Assembly (NCBI GenBank): GCA_016716265.1
Contig: JADJWQ010000006.1
Span: 2,595,166-2,659,165, forward strand
DNA: 64,000 bases
Direction of reading: 5' to 3'
DNA from: Planctomycetota bacterium
GTDB taxonomy: Bacteria > Planctomycetota > UBA1135 > UBA2386
In this document: piece after piece, positions 46,279 to 50,320 of the stretch
How the letters are laid out: each line of letters begins with the position of its first letter
Numbering within the stretch: the first letter of the stretch is position 1
Translations under genes and position numbers: made by a program
The notes under the pieces: model-generated
The model's database searches: none
The model's input: only the letters and a program-made list of their open reading frames with translations
What the model was told of the DNA's origin: nothing

Positions 46279-47262
46279 TCAATGATTGGCGACAGCCTTG
46301 CGGACGTACGCCTCGGCGGCGTCCAGCGCGGCCTGCACGATCGACAGGCTGCGGGTCGGCGGGGTGTGATAGCCGGCGGTCTTCGTCGTCTTCTGGCGCA
46401 CGATCACGACGTCGATGTCGTCCTTGCGCTGCGTCTCGCGCACGACTCCATTCGGTAGCTTCATATGGGCGGTCGCCTCGAACAGCCGCGCACCGGAGCG
46501 GGCGACGAGGACGGCGTAGCAGTACGGGTACGGCGTCCCCTGCACGCGGTTGATCACGACCTGTGCCTGCAGCCCGTAGAAGGCGGCGGGGCCGTCGGGG
46601 AAGGTGACCGCCAGCTTCACGCCGATCGGTGTGCGCCGCTCGTCGCCACCCGCCATCAGCAGCTGCGCGCCGAGCTTGCCACCGGTCCGGCCGTCGATCT
46701 GCAGCGCCTCGCCGATTGGCTTCAGGCTCCGGGCCTGCAGCACGAGGTCTGGCTTCCGGCTGACCGTGCGCATGCCGCTGAACCACTGCGAGGCCAGCAG
46801 CAGCACTCCGTCCATCCCGACGATCCACGCGAGGTCCGCGGAGAAGCTCCCCGCAGCCACCGTGGCGATGCCGAGCACGAGCAGCGCGACGAGCCACGAC
46901 ACGACGCCCGCACCACTGGTGATGTCGAGGGCGCTCTCGTCCCAGCGACGCATCCGACCGTCGACGAGGAGGATCTCCTGGACCCGGTCGAACGCACAGC
47001 TCTCCCACGCAGCTCCCGAGCGGAAGCCGCGCGGGTCGGTGCGCACGTCGAAGCCGACGACCCACGTCATCAGCAATGCGGCGACCAGCAGTGGCACACC
47101 GATCCACACCGACAGCGTCGCGACCTGCAGGATGACGCCACCTGCGGCCAGCACGAGCGCCCACCGCGTCCGCGCACCGTAGCCGAGCTTGCGGAACCAC
47201 GCGAACTGCAGCAGCGGCTCCGCCCGCTCGGCGGCGACCAGCGATCCGGGCTCTGCGCTCAT
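46279..47262 (-). CDS. hypothetical integral membrane protein (4 TM + soluble domain), third gene of the rSAM operon
   Basis: ATG overlaps the stop of the upstream rSAM gene (ATGA). GGAGGAGA RBS upstream. Hydrophobic helices are followed by a 150-aa soluble domain. Confidence 0.55.
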   Translation of the reverse strand: MSAEPGSLVAAERAEPLLQFAWFRKLGYGARTRWALVLAAGGVILQVATLSVWIGVPLLVAALLMTWVVGFDVRTDPRGFRSGAAWESCAFDRVQEILLVDGRMRRWDESALDITSGAGVVSWLVALLVLGIATVAAGSFSADLAWIVGMDGVLLLASQWFSGMRTVSRKPDLVLQARSLKPIGEALQIDGRTGGKLGAQLLMAGGDERRTPIGVKLAVTFPDGPAAFYGLQAQVVINRVQGTPYPYCYAVLVARSGARLFEATAHMKLPNGVVRETQRKDDIDVVIVRQKTTKTAGYHTPPTRSLSIVQAALDAAEAYVRKAVANH

Positions 47263-48617
47263 CGATCGTCTCCTCCGCCCTGCCGGACGGCGCGCAGCTC
47301 CTCGCAGCCGAGCTGGCGCCAGTACAGCGGACAGGCACCGTTGCAGATGTCGAAGTTGTCGCAACCGCGACAGGTGACGGGCGCCCGCGCCTTCGCCCGG
47401 AAGGCCCGCGCCCGCGGGCTCTGCCAGACGGCGTCGAAGCCGTCGCGCAGCAGGCTGCCGAGCGGCTCGTCGTAGCTGGCGCACGGCAGGACGCTGCCGT
47501 CGGCGCCGATCGACAGCAGCCCGTCGCAGGCCGAGCATCCCTTGTTGCCGAGGCCGTGCGTGATCGGATTGAAGATGCACATCGGCGTCGGCGAGTACCA
47601 CTTGAACTCGACGCCCTCCGCGCGCGCCGCACGTTGCACGGCATCGATGACCGGTCCGACTTCCGCGTAGCGCACGACCAGCGCGTCATCGCGGGCCGCC
47701 GTACCGGTCGGGATCATCAGGTTCATCGAGATCGTGCGGAGCCCGAGCTCGCGGCGCGCGAAGCCGGGAAACCGTGCGGCCTCGCCGACGTTGTGGCGGT
47801 CGAGCGTCGTGTTGGTATTGACGTTCAGGCCAGCGGCCAGGTAGCGCCGCACCGCGGCAGTCGCCTTCTCGAACGACCCCGGGATGCCGGTGATCCGATC
47901 GTGCGTGGCGTCGGTCACGCCCTCGATGCTGACCTGCACCGACTGCAGCCCCGCCTCGACCAGCTCCGTGACACGCCGCTCGTCGCTCAGGATCCCGTTG
48001 GTGATCAGGTTGACGCGCAGGCCGATCGACCGCGCGTATTGCACCATCTCGGCGAGGTCCCTACGCAACGTCGCCTCGCCCCCGGTGAAGCTGACGCTCG
48101 GCACCTGCGCGTCGTTTCGGATCGCGTCGAGCACCCGCCGCACGTCGTCGAGCGTCATCTCGACATCGCTGCCGACCGGATTGCAGGTGCAGTTGCAGCC
48201 GGCGTAGCAGAACTCGCAGCGGGCGTTGCAGCGGTACGTCACCGCGACCTCCGCCATGACCGGCAGCGGCGAGAAGCTCGCCGCGAACGGCTGCTTGTCG
48301 ACCGCCGGCGACTCGTAGGTGTCCGCGAGCCCGTCCTGCAGCAGCTTGCGGACGTCGAGCAGGAACCGCTCGACGTCGCACCAGACGTCCGCGCGGCGAC
48401 CCCAGGGTGCGAGCACCTCGGCGATCGGCACGCCGCGCAGCAGCGGCTCCAGCACGGCGACACCACGCTCGTTGAGGTGCACGGCGCGGTTCGGCCGCTG
48501 GATGAACACGCGATCGACCGCGCGCACGAAGACGTGATCGCGGACGTTCGCAGCCCAGTCATCGACCCAGGCGAGATCGGGAAGTCCGGGCTGCACCGGC
48601 TCGCATCGCACGTCCAT
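47259..48617 (-). CDS. radical SAM / SPASM-domain peptide-modifying enzyme with N-terminal PqqD-like RiPP recognition element
   Basis: CX3CX2C (CNARCEFC). GGE motif FTGGEATL. C-terminal twin-cluster Cys pattern (CSACDGLLSIGADGSVLPC ... CRGCDNFDICNGAC). The N-terminal 110 aa resemble a PqqD/RRE domain (RAVHLNERGVAVLEPLLRGVPIAEV). The ATG overlaps the stop of the upstream gene by 1 nt (TGATG). Confidence 0.85.
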   Translation of the reverse strand: MDVRCEPVQPGLPDLAWVDDWAANVRDHVFVRAVDRVFIQRPNRAVHLNERGVAVLEPLLRGVPIAEVLAPWGRRADVWCDVERFLLDVRKLLQDGLADTYESPAVDKQPFAASFSPLPVMAEVAVTYRCNARCEFCYAGCNCTCNPVGSDVEMTLDDVRRVLDAIRNDAQVPSVSFTGGEATLRRDLAEMVQYARSIGLRVNLITNGILSDERRVTELVEAGLQSVQVSIEGVTDATHDRITGIPGSFEKATAAVRRYLAAGLNVNTNTTLDRHNVGEAARFPGFARRELGLRTISMNLMIPTGTAARDDALVVRYAEVGPVIDAVQRAARAEGVEFKWYSPTPMCIFNPITHGLGNKGCSACDGLLSIGADGSVLPCASYDEPLGSLLRDGFDAVWQSPRARAFRAKARAPVTCRGCDNFDICNGACPLYWRQLGCEELRAVRQGGGDDR

Positions 48618-50320
48618 CAGAACGACCCTCCGCTGTGGCAGGCCGAGTGACACGCGGAATGGCAGGCCGAGTGGCACGCCGAGTGACAGGCCGAGTGACA
48701 CGCTGAATGGCACGCCGAGTGGCAGGCCGAGTGGCACACGTTGACGGGCACCGAGTCGCCCAGGAACGCCTCGTACGACACGTGGTCGACCGCGACGTCG
48801 ATGCCACGGGCGAAGCGGTCGGGTCGCAGCGAACGGTCGTAGTCGGTGTAGCCGTACTGCCAGAAGTACCAGTGATGCCAGCCGTGGTGCCGGTCGATGT
48901 AACGACGCGCGTCGTCGTCGGCGCGCGCCTCGTGCCCTTCGCGTGCGCGCTCCTCCCACACCGGGCCGATCTGCCCGCGCCAGTACTGCTTGGTTGCCTC
49001 GATATCGCAGTCCCAGGCCTTCTTCTGCACGTTCTCGACGACCATGTCGAGCAGGTCCTCGAGCTCGGCCCGGGAGAACGCGCCGTCGTCCTCCGCAGCC
49101 TGGATCATCGCGATCTCGTAGTTCTCGAGCTTCGCGCGGTCGTTCGGGTGTCGCTCGAGCACGCGGACGAGCAAGGGCTCCTCCCGCACCACCTCGAGGA
49201 AGCCGGCCTGCAGCAGTCGCTGCAGCATGACGCTCAGGATGCGCCGGTACGGAATCTCGAGGAAGAACGCGACCTCGATCGGCGTCAGGTCGGTGCAGAC
49301 CTTGCCGGGCTTGCGGAAGGTCGACAGCACGAGCTTCGGCGGCGTCCAGTCGACGCTCGCCCAGCTCACGTCGTCGATCGTGGCCCGTGCGTGCCGCGTC
49401 TCGCGGTGCTTGCTCCGGACGAGGAGCACGAACGCCCCGACCACGATGCCGCCGAGCAGGGCGGCCAGCGCGCGCGTGGTCGCGCGATCTTCGACCGGTT
49501 CACGCGTCGGCGGGCGCGGCGGGCGCGGCGCAGCGGGCTGGATCGGTCCGCGGACCGGTGCACGGGCCGGCGCCGGGCCGGCCGCGCCGGCGGCGCGCGT
49601 CCACGTCGCGGGCTCGAACACCGACGCCCGCACGTACTGCTGGATGTCGAACCGCGCGTCCTTGGCGAGGTTCTCCTGGTGCAGGAGCACCTCGAAACGA
49701 CCGTCTTCCGCCGTTCGGTAGTCGATCCGGTAGCGGTCGTTCATGAACTTCTCGGTGCGGAAGTGCAGCCCGTCGAGGAACGCGGGAGACCGCGGATCGC
49801 CGATCACCTCGGTCGGATAGCGCACGCGCACCGTGGCGTGCTGTAGCGCGTGATCCCAGGTCGACGGCGCCCAGTGGAACACCGCCAGCTCGGTGCCATC
49901 CGCGTCGGTCGTCCGCGCCAGGAAGCCGTGCGCCGCGAAGTCGGTCGCGAAGCGGAACCGGAAGATCACCTCGCCCTCGCGCACTCCGGCGCCGCCGGCC
50001 AGCTCGATGGTCTGCCGGCCGTTCCGATTACCCCGGATCAGGCGGTACTCGAGGCCGGAGGTCGTCGTCGCGCGCCCGAACCCGTCGTCCCAAACCGGCG
50101 CCAGCGAGTCGATCTGCGGCCCCGCGAACCAGAACCCGTGCAGCTCGCCGGTCGCCGCGTAGCACACGGTGTAGGTGACCGACGAGCGGCCGTCGGTGCC
50201 GACGTCGACGTCGACCTCGCACCACACCGGATGGCCCTGCTGCGCCGGCAGCCGCCCGCCGGAAAGGCCGAGAGCGACGATGGCGATGCCAGCCCGGAGA
50301 ACGCTGCCCGAGGACCCCAT
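48617..50320 (-). CDS. bitopic membrane protein (signal peptide, periplasmic domain, Pro-rich linker, TM, cytoplasmic domain) ending in a (Cys-His-Ser-Ala)x9 tail
   Basis: Signal [41 protein letters not shown]. The C-terminus is [42 protein letters not shown]. Architecture resembles DUF2207-type proteins, but with a Cys/His repeat tail in place of a Gly-rich tail. Confidence 0.65.
   Translation of the reverse strand: [567 protein letters not shown]
48632..48739. repeat. 12-bp tandem repeat x9 encoding (CHSA)n
   Basis: On the minus strand, units follow the pattern TGY CAY TCN/AGC GCS. The units differ at synonymous third positions (tgc/tgt, cac/cat, tcg/tca/tcc/agc, gcc/gcg). Confidence 0.9.

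Follow-up and report, generated by a model that had tools for sequence, protein, structure and literature searches.

A candidate protein-maturation cassette that pairs the Cys-His repeat tail of a membrane protein with a radical SAM/SPASM enzyme across bacterial phyla

Within a 64,000-nucleotide stretch of the genome of a Planctomycetota bacterium (contig JADJWQ010000006.1; hereafter, the window, to which all coordinates refer unless a locus is named), three adjacent genes, denoted A, B and C, encode, respectively, a membrane protein with a C-terminal tail of Cys-His repeats, a radical S-adenosylmethionine (SAM) enzyme with a SPASM region, and a second membrane protein. These genes probably comprise a self-contained, horizontally mobile protein-maturation cassette in which B modifies the tail of A, thioether formation being the likeliest chemistry. 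The association between A and B holds in both directions, that is, in searches seeded with the enzyme and in searches seeded with the tail, and conservation across hundreds of genomes shows that the cassette is more than a chance arrangement. The combination of a repeat-bearing protein and a radical SAM maturase is of a known kind; what appears to be new is the tail of a membrane protein as the putative substrate, the strict Ala-Cys-His-Ser unit, the third conserved membrane protein and the exceptional cross-phylum conservation.

Gene organization and linkage of the cassette

All three genes, and all features of them described below, are on the minus strand. Gene A (48617..50320, including the stop codon), delineated by its open reading frame (ORF), translation and homologs, encodes a 567-amino acid (aa) carrier membrane protein. 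Gene B (47259..48617), assigned from its ORF and translation, Pfam matches and an AlphaFold2 model, encodes a 452-aa radical SAM-SPASM enzyme with an N-terminal domain that resembles the RiPP (a peptide made ribosomally and modified post-translationally) recognition element (RRE). Gene C (46279..47262) encodes, judging from hydropathy and alignment, a 327-aa membrane protein with two transmembrane (TM) hairpins and a soluble C-terminal domain. The genes are arranged head to tail with overlapping stop and start codons, the ATG of gene B (48617) lying inside the TGATG that closes gene A and the ATG of gene C (47262) inside the ATGA that closes gene B, exactly as an earlier note on this DNA had described the operon. 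The same note found no room for a separate small precursor ORF between the genes, and this observation extends beyond the window: the genes overlap here, and the intergenic gaps at other loci contain no conserved ORF. The B protein is 100% identical to a public entry annotated as ‘radical SAM protein’ from a Planctomycetota metagenome-assembled genome (P0001), and an independent Logan contig carries the same three gene calls. A scan of the operon for promoters and terminators detected no signal above the shuffled expectation, which is not surprising for a planctomycete of 70% G+C (the G+C content of the window is about 72%).

A scan seeded with B, using one genome per GTDB species, identified relatives of the enzyme in 385 species genomes, and the neighborhoods of the best 80 loci, in which B is 45–62% identical to its counterpart in the window, were analyzed. 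As detected with tblastn, A is encoded at 75 of these 80 loci, directly upstream of B, and C likewise at 75, normally directly after B, such that the order is A-B-C; every complete copy of A at these loci ends in the Cys-His repeat. The alternative outcomes anticipated in the earlier note, namely, a radical SAM gene conserved beside sulfatases or other unrelated substrates, or A homologs devoid of the Cys repeat, are thus not what these neighborhoods contain. Among the exceptions, one locus is cut by a contig end (L065), another is a 3-kb contig with an unrelated ORF occupying the 800 nt upstream of B (L062), and in the third, a group II intron reverse transcriptase is inserted upstream of B (L037); two further exceptions are considered below, where the proposed function is weighed. 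All-against-all clustering of every ORF of at least 90 aa encoded within 6 kb on either side of the cassette in the best 80 loci revealed no further conserved gene family.

The best 80 loci span at least 11 phyla, as named in the records, including Planctomycetota, Gemmatimonadota, Desulfobacterales, Bacteroidales, Calditrichia, Verrucomicrobia, Lentisphaeria, Acidobacteriota/Aminicenantes, Cloacimonetes, Gammaproteobacteria (Sedimenticola and Acidiferrobacteraceae), Thermoleophilia, Clostridia and Moduliflexus/Vecturithrix. Most of the carriers belong to lineages from anoxic sediments, sludge and bioreactors.

In the reciprocal search, a degenerate DNA pattern for CHxACHxACHxACVxG was scanned over metagenomes, yielding at least 120 loci; of the 120 listed, 105 encode B and 108 encode an A homolog. 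The 105 B-bearing loci comprise 45 with the order A-tail-B-C, 43 with A-tail-B, 8 that start at the tail, 5 with A-C-B, 3 in which B is divergent and upstream, and 1 with an odd order. A contig end lies within 600 nt of the tail in 9 of the 120 loci, and the other loci without B mostly belong to the A-C-B or divergent-B subgroups, one (L192) being a chance match. In a neighbor-joining tree of B, the sequences associated with tails of the CHSGGSF type, including the window, form one exclusive clade of 11 tips, the records of which name Planctomycetota, Desulfobacteraceae and Acidiferrobacteraceae. The confinement of this tail type to a single clade of B implies that the enzyme and the type of tail are passed on and diversify together and that the cassette moves horizontally. 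Thus, the partnership between the tail and the radical SAM enzyme suggested in the earlier note is backed by the enzyme-seeded loci, the tail-seeded loci and this shared clade.

Some of the loci depart from the common layout. In the Lentisphaeria contig with the intron insertion, a 497-aa ORF for a group II intron-type reverse transcriptase/maturase (L037:341-1834) occupies the usual position of A, and the contig ends beyond it. In L027, gene C is located about 3 kb from B; in L158, L167 and L180, a radical SAM gene is found about 4 kb upstream, on the opposite strand; and the A-C-B order is represented by L117, L118, L127, L146 and L154.

An origin of the cassette from phages or defense islands was considered and rejected, given that the matches to the tail pattern in IMG/VR are chance simple-repeat ORFs without A, B or C. 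The three IMG/VR contigs (L082-L084) carry short ORFs in which the unit is repeated two or three times in apparent tandem-repeat DNA, which looks like a chance resemblance. A search of PADLOC-DB 2.0 produced no match for A or C and, for B, only generic radical SAM similarity to pVip.

The Cys-His repeat tail

The tail of A, (CHSA)x8-CHS-GGSF, which we propose as the substrate of B, spans residues 529-567 (48620..48736), as delimited by translation, Tandem Repeats Finder and unit composition. The C-terminus of A in the window reads ...SVPVNV-(CHSA)x8-CHS-GGSF, with 9 Cys in register, which confirms the 567-aa protein with nine tandem CHS(A) units followed by GGSF that had been read from this DNA previously. 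Tandem Repeats Finder places 8.6 copies of a 12-nt period, at 79% matches, in 48635-48737, and the nine units use six different 12-nt strings. The repeat is kept at the protein level and does not derive from fresh slippage: replication slippage and assembly artefacts were rejected as the source of the repeat because the units differ synonymously and the DNA that encodes one and the same protein sequence diverges widely from phylum to phylum.

The composition of the unit, determined from 190 tails with 1414 units, is nearly invariant: position 1 is Cys in 100% of the units, position 2 is His in 98% and otherwise Tyr, position 3 is Ser (82%), Asp (12.5%) or Asn (3%), these three together accounting for 97.5%, and position 4 is Ala in 99.9%. 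About 94% of the 190 tails end in C-V-S-G-(G/S)-x-(H/R), whereas the clade that includes the window has C-H-S-G-G-S-F instead. The number of Cys per tail is 8 in 99 tails, 9 in 55, 10 in 25, 11 in 3, 6 in 1 and 4 in 7. The earlier note had allowed for variation in repeat number among homologs; a few tails with 4, 6 or 11 Cys do exist, but the number is nearly fixed, with 8–10 Cys in 179 of the 190. Distant members of the A family have as few as three tail Cys, the smallest natural number of units, three, being seen in P0157.

The same 35-aa tail, without a single difference, is encoded at 36 genome loci, among which the mean nucleotide identity of the tail is 78% and the identity at third codon positions is 41%; within one such tail, the units employ 5–6 different codon sets out of 6. 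Outside the tail, A is only 33–57% identical to A of the window. The tail, then, is under extreme purifying selection. Because every residue of the tail is constrained, unlike in an ordinary low-complexity linker, this pattern fits an enzyme substrate or a cofactor precursor, and not a spacer or a loosely constrained metal-binding stretch.

Attachment of heme via overlapping CX3CH motifs was also considered and dismissed, given that the tail is predicted to be cytoplasmic (see below) and that the last Cys is not followed by His in 94% of the tails; clustering of the ORFs in the neighborhoods detected no cytochrome c maturation genes linked to the cassette loci. Among variant tails, a split form in which the terminal ACV motif occurs twice was seen in six metagenome loci (L158, L167, L180, L144, L094 and L096). 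In two loci of the Moduliflexus/Vecturithrix type, L027 (5488-5625) and L040, the tail runs past ACVSGG into a Gly/Ser-rich extension (GGGSSGGGGASGGW), which resembles the glycine-rich C-termini of ordinary DUF2207 proteins.

The radical SAM/SPASM enzyme

The assignment of B as a radical SAM enzyme with a SPASM C-terminus, made in the earlier note from the Cys motifs, is borne out by profile searches. The protein passes the Pfam threshold for the radical SAM superfamily (PF04055, 92.1 bits against a threshold of 29.5, E 5.8e-26) as well as the cutoffs of both SPASM models (PF13186, 41 bits against 21.5, E 2.4e-10; TIGR04085, 40.7 bits against 27). The cluster motif C130-X3-C134-X2-C137 (48207..48230) is invariant in 59 full-length B homologs. 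Two further Cys, C141 and C143, which directly follow the motif, are conserved in at least 90% of these homologs, resulting in the signature CxxxCxFCYAGCNCT; we are not aware of a described role for it, and it makes a very specific search pattern. In the SPASM region (residues 347-429; 47331..47579), eight Cys, C347, C361, C364, C379, C416, C419, C425 and C429, are invariant in the 59 homologs, and direct reading of the sequence indicates that C364-X9-G374-X4-C379 and C416-X2-C419-X5-C425-X3-C429 agree with the canonical SPASM spacing, CX9-15GX4C ... CX2CX5CX3C.

The AlphaFold2 model of B, built from the 59-sequence alignment, has a predicted local distance difference test (pLDDT) score of 88.8 and a predicted TM-score (pTM) of 0.89. 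Residues 14-96 (48330..48578) are modelled as an RRE-like winged helix consisting of a helix, three strands and three helices (DSSP assignments H16-25, E29-32, E37-40, E44-47, H50-60, H65-72 and H76-95; pLDDT 87–97 in this domain). The beta3-alpha3 winged helix of residues 29-95 has the RRE topology and is located N-terminal to the radical SAM core as in SuiB, SkfB and CteB. In a Foldseek comparison, the whole model best matches SkfB (E 1.9e-16, 406 columns) and SuiB (E 9.5e-16, 459 columns, TMq 0.67), with BlsE, anSME (anaerobic sulfatase-maturating enzyme) and PqqE ranking below; SkfB is also the top PDB match by sequence profile (2.5e-27).

None of the NCBIfam families of maturases accommodates B. 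Its top scores are all far under the cutoffs (AhbD, 122 bits against 500; PqqE, 117 against 381; GeoRSP radical SAM, 103 against 400), as are those for sactipeptide and ranthipeptide maturases (StsB, NF045574, 93 against 625; SkfB, TIGR04403, 78 against 300) and for PapB (NF047865, 19 bits against 340, in the SPASM region only). In the SPASM region, B also shows similarity to SbtM, named ‘thio(seleno)oxazole modification radical SAM maturase’ (E 9e-8), and to anSME (E 1e-6). B represents an unnamed new family within the RRE-radical SAM-SPASM maturases.

The carrier protein

The 567-aa carrier was modelled with AlphaFold2 using an alignment of matches from a search of sequence representatives (pLDDT 78.8), and conservation was assessed in an alignment of 34 homologs. 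Residues 1-27 (50240..50320) form a hydrophobic, signal-peptide-like N-terminus, recognizable in the sequence, in the alignment of homologs and as a helix of residues 5-19 in the model; the homologs bear classical signal peptides ending in ...AG/KG. We infer that the N-terminus of A is exported. It is followed by a predicted extracytoplasmic beta-sandwich domain (residues 29-245; 49586..50236) that we read as a divergent relative of the DUF2207 N-terminal domain. The relationship to DUF2207 raised in the earlier note is thus partly upheld: the protein from the window remains below the gathering threshold of PF09972 (16.1 bits against 24.4, E 0.014), but 23 of the 34 homologs match this domain in the same region (best E 1.2e-6). 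A Pro/Ala-rich linker leads to a single TM helix (residues 280-304, 49409..49483; hydropathy peak 2.35, helix 279-315 in the model), directly after which comes a basic stretch.

Beyond the membrane, residues 320-460 (48941..49363) are modelled as a winged-helix-like domain (order H-H-beta-beta-H, pLDDT about 90) with the invariant residues W325, P327 and P328 and a nearly invariant motif ending in.P.E, the confidently predicted fold covering residues about 345-460. NCBIfam TIGR04222 matches 14 of the 34 homologs at 19–29 bits, below the cutoff of 43 (best E 4.6e-8), and does not match A of the window, so that this domain is a remote relative and not a member of the TIGR04222 family. An aromatic-rich stretch separates it from a leader-like segment (residues 500-528; 48737..48823), which is apparent in the alignment and reads ..P...F.R.IDV.VDHVSY.AF....VPVNV in the window. 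The consensus of this segment is IPV..DH.I.G...TD; P500 is invariant, D512, H513 and V528 are nearly invariant across phyla, and the DH dipeptide is positioned 16–18 residues ahead of the first tail Cys in 79 tails. Both the leader-like segment and the tail are modelled as disordered (pLDDT 35–48). Residues 500-528 are the putative binding site for the RRE of B.

The winged-helix domain and the tail are predicted to be cytoplasmic, given the signal-peptide-like N-terminus, the single TM helix and the basic stretch (positive-inside rule). With this topology, the tail would be reachable by B, an Fe-S enzyme without a signal peptide.

An exhaustive search of 1.84 billion representatives identified 272 clusters related to A in all. 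In several A homologs (P0128, P0145, P0152, P0190 and P0271, and loci L004 and L017), the protein is truncated at the repeat or close to it, or changes frame there, so that ATRPVTAPAIPPA takes the place of ACHSACHS; gene A of L017 is broken by a run of N. Because many entries are truncated or frameshifted at the repeat in this way, the A family is under-represented and poorly annotated in protein databases.

Protein C

Hydropathy and alignment of C, which the earlier note had described as a protein with four TM segments, indeed delineate two TM hairpins and a cytoplasmic loop of about 40 aa, the C-terminal part being a soluble domain of about 170 aa. The family is characterized by the conserved motifs GYDNRV, W-DRS..DITN, PHWFTG.R, YPYFYVVLVA and VIRQ.TTKTSGYHT and by invariant polar residues (D, K, Q, N, E, R and Y). 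Member-by-member searches of C against Pfam, NCBIfam, PADLOC and PDB sequences, with the threshold relaxed to E<=10, gave no match.

Comparison with known systems

Several described systems resemble parts of the cassette. In the CXXX-repeat system (TIGR04117), the predicted target likewise has a Cys at every fourth residue of a C-terminal repeat and adjoins a radical SAM/SPASM gene, but the TIGR04117 targets are small proteins (the profile has 98 positions), compared with the membrane protein A of about 550 aa, and in the present cassette His and Ala are invariant as well. A of the window does not match TIGR04117 (cutoff 50 bits), and the 14.2 bits obtained for one member (L009) reflect tail composition only. 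TIGR04115, reportedly described by Haft and Basu in 2011 as the partner maturase of the CXXX targets, is absent from the best 25 NCBIfam matches of B, so that its score would be <69 bits. The ACGX-repeat system shares with the cassette a four-residue unit that starts with Ala-Cys and is paired with a radical SAM/SPASM enzyme (TIGR04340, rSAM_ACGX). It differs in that the unit here is A-C-H-(S/D) and not A-C-G-X and the carrier is a large membrane protein; B scores 20 bits against the TIGR04340 cutoff of 400, in the SPASM part only, and the ACGX target model, which we take to be TIGR04341, has no match among A members at E<=0.01.

Among the RRE-containing radical SAM peptide maturases, SkfB, CteB and PapB form thioethers, and SuiB forms a Lys-Trp crosslink. 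B shares with these enzymes the succession of RRE, radical SAM and SPASM or twitch domains and the Cys-containing (in the case of B, putative) substrate, but is only 13–23% identical to them, and their substrates are short, released peptides as opposed to the putative membrane-protein tail. Like anSME, B is a radical SAM/SPASM enzyme with two auxiliary clusters predicted to be fully Cys-ligated, and it would likewise act on Cys of a folded protein. The anSMEs lack an RRE and target sulfatases that contain CxPxR or CxAxR. As a model for B, anSME was rejected: in addition to the lack of an RRE, the score of B for TIGR03942 is far below the cutoff (27.8 bits against 349), and no sulfatase was found near B in any locus analyzed, A and C being the only conserved neighbors.

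The HXS antiphage system relies on HxsB and HxsC for the maturation of HxsA, a protein that contains five HxS repeats (PMC13128918). The earlier note pointed to this system as a parallel, and the parallel holds in that a repeat-bearing protein is the substrate, putative in the present cassette, of a radical SAM enzyme, the repeats contain His and Ser, and the cassette is small and self-contained; however, HxsA lacks Cys and is an N-terminally processed, exported periplasmic effector, and the system includes two radical SAM enzymes and HxsD (PMC13128918). The cassette described here does not belong to HXS: it has one radical SAM gene, no HxsD-like gene and an ACH(S/D) repeat, and B scores 78.5 bits for HxsC4 against a cutoff of 500. 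The CXXX and ACGX systems and the pairs described next are closer analogs. Membrane proteins of the TIGR04222 family with Cys-rich, low-complexity tails have been proposed as substrates of MNIO (DUF692) enzymes (PMC12452194). As in these pairs, the cassette combines a membrane protein carrying a Cys-containing C-terminal tail with an adjacent enzyme for which the tail is the proposed substrate; the differences are the radical SAM/SPASM enzyme, the strict four-residue repeat in place of irregular Gly/Ser/Cys tails, and the added DUF2207-like domain (PMC12452194). Thus, the same kind of carrier seems to be paired with different classes of enzymes, MNIO in one case and radical SAM in the other.

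Full-text literature searches for the tail strings, or for DUF2207 linked with radical SAM, found no paper, and the cassette does not correspond to a described family in Pfam, NCBIfam, PADLOC, PDB sequences or the full-text literature searched, in line with the impression recorded in the earlier note.

Proposed mechanism and alternatives

The scheme that we favor is as follows. A would be exported N-terminus first, placing the DUF2207-like beta-sandwich outside the cell, with one helix crossing the membrane and the winged-helix domain and the disordered tail remaining in the cytoplasm. The cytoplasmic enzyme B would dock, by its N-terminal RRE, on the conserved segment upstream of the repeat and, using the SAM-derived radical and two auxiliary Fe-S clusters, would modify the Ala-Cys-His-(Ser/Asp) units in turn via hydrogen atom abstraction. 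The likeliest outcome would be short intramolecular thioether rings of the sactionine or ranthionine type, one per Cys. Modification would turn the tail into a rigid rod, rich in His and sulfur at regular spacing, that would remain attached to A on the inner side of the membrane and most plausibly would bind metal ions or work with C, a putative membrane-anchored cytoplasmic partner.

The view of B as a peptide maturase stems from the combination of radical SAM and SPASM parts, the RRE-fold N-terminal domain and the best matches to SkfB and SuiB. The tail is the candidate substrate because the leader-like segment is conserved across phyla and because this segment and the tail are predicted to be disordered and hence accessible. 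We prefer thioether chemistry because the closest solved relative, SkfB, makes thioethers, because Cys is the one absolutely invariant residue of the unit, and because the invariant Ala and the small polar residue in position 3 are plausible acceptor or ring positions. Short periodic motifs, NxxC in NxxcA and CxxxD in the PapB substrate, serve as SPASM thioether substrates, which is another reason for this preference. The product probably stays on A given that the tail is conserved together with the periplasmic and winged-helix domains, even in the distant homolog P0267, and that the cassette includes no peptidase or exporter. Regularly arranged, modified Cys next to His would suggest metal binding. 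Carried further, the modified tail might be a protein-derived, membrane-tethered cofactor, that is, an array of about eight identical radical SAM-made units derived from Cys and His, forming a linear metal-binding or redox-active rod at the inner membrane face that the TM helix of A would couple to a ligand-binding domain in the periplasm and that would have C as a client in the cytoplasm; we regard this elaboration as a tentative and rather unlikely one.

Several observations weigh against the proposed maturation of the tail by B. The linkage of the genes, the domain architectures and the selection on the tail are observed, whereas the topology of A, the modification of the tail, its role as the substrate of B, the thioether chemistry and any function are inferred; an array of Cys and His could bind metal without being modified at all. 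The PqqD-like RRE noted previously at the N-terminus of B appears in the AlphaFold2 model and in its superposition on SuiB and SkfB, but residues 1-116 match no Pfam model of PqqD or RRE (PF05402) at E<=10, and the sole faint match to a model of this type is NF033530, the lasso PqqD (E 0.15, 12 bits against a cutoff of 70), so that the RRE is supported by the predicted fold and not by sequence statistics. The NCBIfam scores of B for thioether maturases do not exceed those for AhbD or PqqE. The eight invariant Cys of B could fully ligate both auxiliary clusters, as in anSME and SuiB; the sactisynthase CteB reportedly has an open-site arrangement, and the Cys count as such neither favors nor rules out thioether formation. 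The Cys-rich tails of TIGR04222 proteins are predicted to be periplasmic (PMC12452194), unlike the topology deduced for A. In addition, one of the best 80 loci has B and C without A nearby (L050), another contains an orphan B (L030), and the proposed scheme leaves the role of C unexplained.

Of the competing explanations, the one that retains the partnership and changes the chemistry is the most probable, although we consider it unlikely: B would install a thiooxazole-type heterocycle, a formylglycine, or a Cys-His or other His-centered crosslink, and the product would be a membrane-tethered metal-chelating tail. MNIO enzymes make thiooxazole-type heterocycles in bufferins, the name of SbtM indicates a similar product, and the cytoplasmic domain of A is a sub-threshold relative of TIGR04222, the Cys-tailed members of which are proposed MNIO substrates (PMC12452194); nevertheless, the cassette includes no MNIO or partner genes, and a heterocycle at Cys does not obviously explain the invariance of Ala. 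The similarity of the SPASM region to SbtM and anSME and the eight invariant auxiliary-cluster Cys, which resemble those of anSME, could be taken to point in the same direction, but the family scores are far below the cutoffs and reflect only the shared SPASM fold, whereas anSME has no RRE and its CxPxR and CxAxR motifs are missing from the tail. An invariant His beside every Cys does suggest a chelating unit, and the HXS system, with a mass change of +8 Da at the SHRSS motif of HxsA, provides a precedent involving His and Ser.

It is considerably less probable that the tail is not a substrate but a native Cys/His metal or Fe-S arm of A, which would function as a sensor, a chaperone, or a donor of clusters or electrons, with B acting on another molecule and depending on A or C for a platform at the membrane or for clusters. 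Both Cys and His are classical ligands that the strict i/i+4 spacing could align, A and C are both membrane proteins with conserved cytoplasmic domains, and the modification of the tail is itself a proposal. Metal-binding tails, however, normally vary in length and spacing, whereas here Ala is conserved at 99.9%, the terminal ACVSGG is retained, and the type of the tail tracks the clade of the enzyme; moreover, B has an RRE-fold domain and peptide maturases as its best structural matches, and no genes of small-molecule pathways are conserved nearby. Finally, the leader-like segment, the disordered core and the RRE enzyme together resemble a RiPP cluster, so that one could envisage the tail as a RiPP core that is cleaved from A and set free as a secreted poly-(Cys-His) peptide, such as a metallophore or an antimicrobial, with A serving as a very large leader bound to the membrane, or as a platform for export, and C, a conserved membrane protein with invariant polar residues, as the protease or exporter. 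This scenario is the most improbable of those considered: C and the neighboring genes match no peptidase, ABC transporter or other exporter family, no double-Gly or other cleavage motif is conserved ahead of the repeat, and the 500-residue body of A, including the periplasmic domain, accompanies the tail in every variant, the distant P0267 included, which would be needless for a leader.

Implications of the proposed maturation

To our knowledge, nearly all described radical SAM/SPASM maturases act on short secreted peptides, the few cases of protein substrates being sulfatases modified by anSME, QhpC modified by QhpD and HxsA modified by HxsBC. If the proposed maturation of the tail by B is correct, the cassette would be a widespread case in which an integral membrane protein provides the radical SAM substrate, namely, its cytoplasmic tail, represented in 385 species genomes and well over 100 metagenome contigs. 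It would also offer a first way into the function of DUF2207 and TIGR04222, two large families of membrane proteins ending in low-complexity tails, and would mean that such tails have become substrates of two unrelated classes of enzymes, MNIO and radical SAM, each recruited for this purpose. Near-perfect conservation of the tail across phyla is rare for any repeat and implies that each Ala-Cys-His-Ser residue is important for the enzyme or the product, if not for both. If the modified tail were a cofactor, it would be a previously unseen way to sense or handle metals or electrons across a membrane, conserved nearly down to the single residue in at least 11 phyla. The system is small, with three genes, no other dependencies and a predicted substrate of 40 residues, so that its chemistry is directly testable.

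Neighboring genes in the window

Several further genes flank the cassette in the window. A 763-aa ORF on the same strand (50372-52663, minus strand), which ends 51 nt upstream of gene A, has a signal-like N-terminus and no Pfam match; it has no homolog near the cassette at any other locus and is probably unrelated. On the plus strand, an ORF of up to 1279 aa (52127-55966) contains about twenty degenerate E(L/P)W.(S/T)DGT.AGT repeats, with the probable start MTITPPPPQSRW followed by a signal-like segment, and has no Pfam match at E<=0.001. On the other side of the cassette, also on the plus strand, a small cytochrome c-like protein (45633-46256; PF00034, E 7e-5) is encoded convergently with the end of gene C, and a Ser/Thr protein kinase is fused to a long TPR array (42625-45576; Pkinase E 1e-39, TPR_12 E 4e-57); neither of these two genes is conserved beside the cassette elsewhere.

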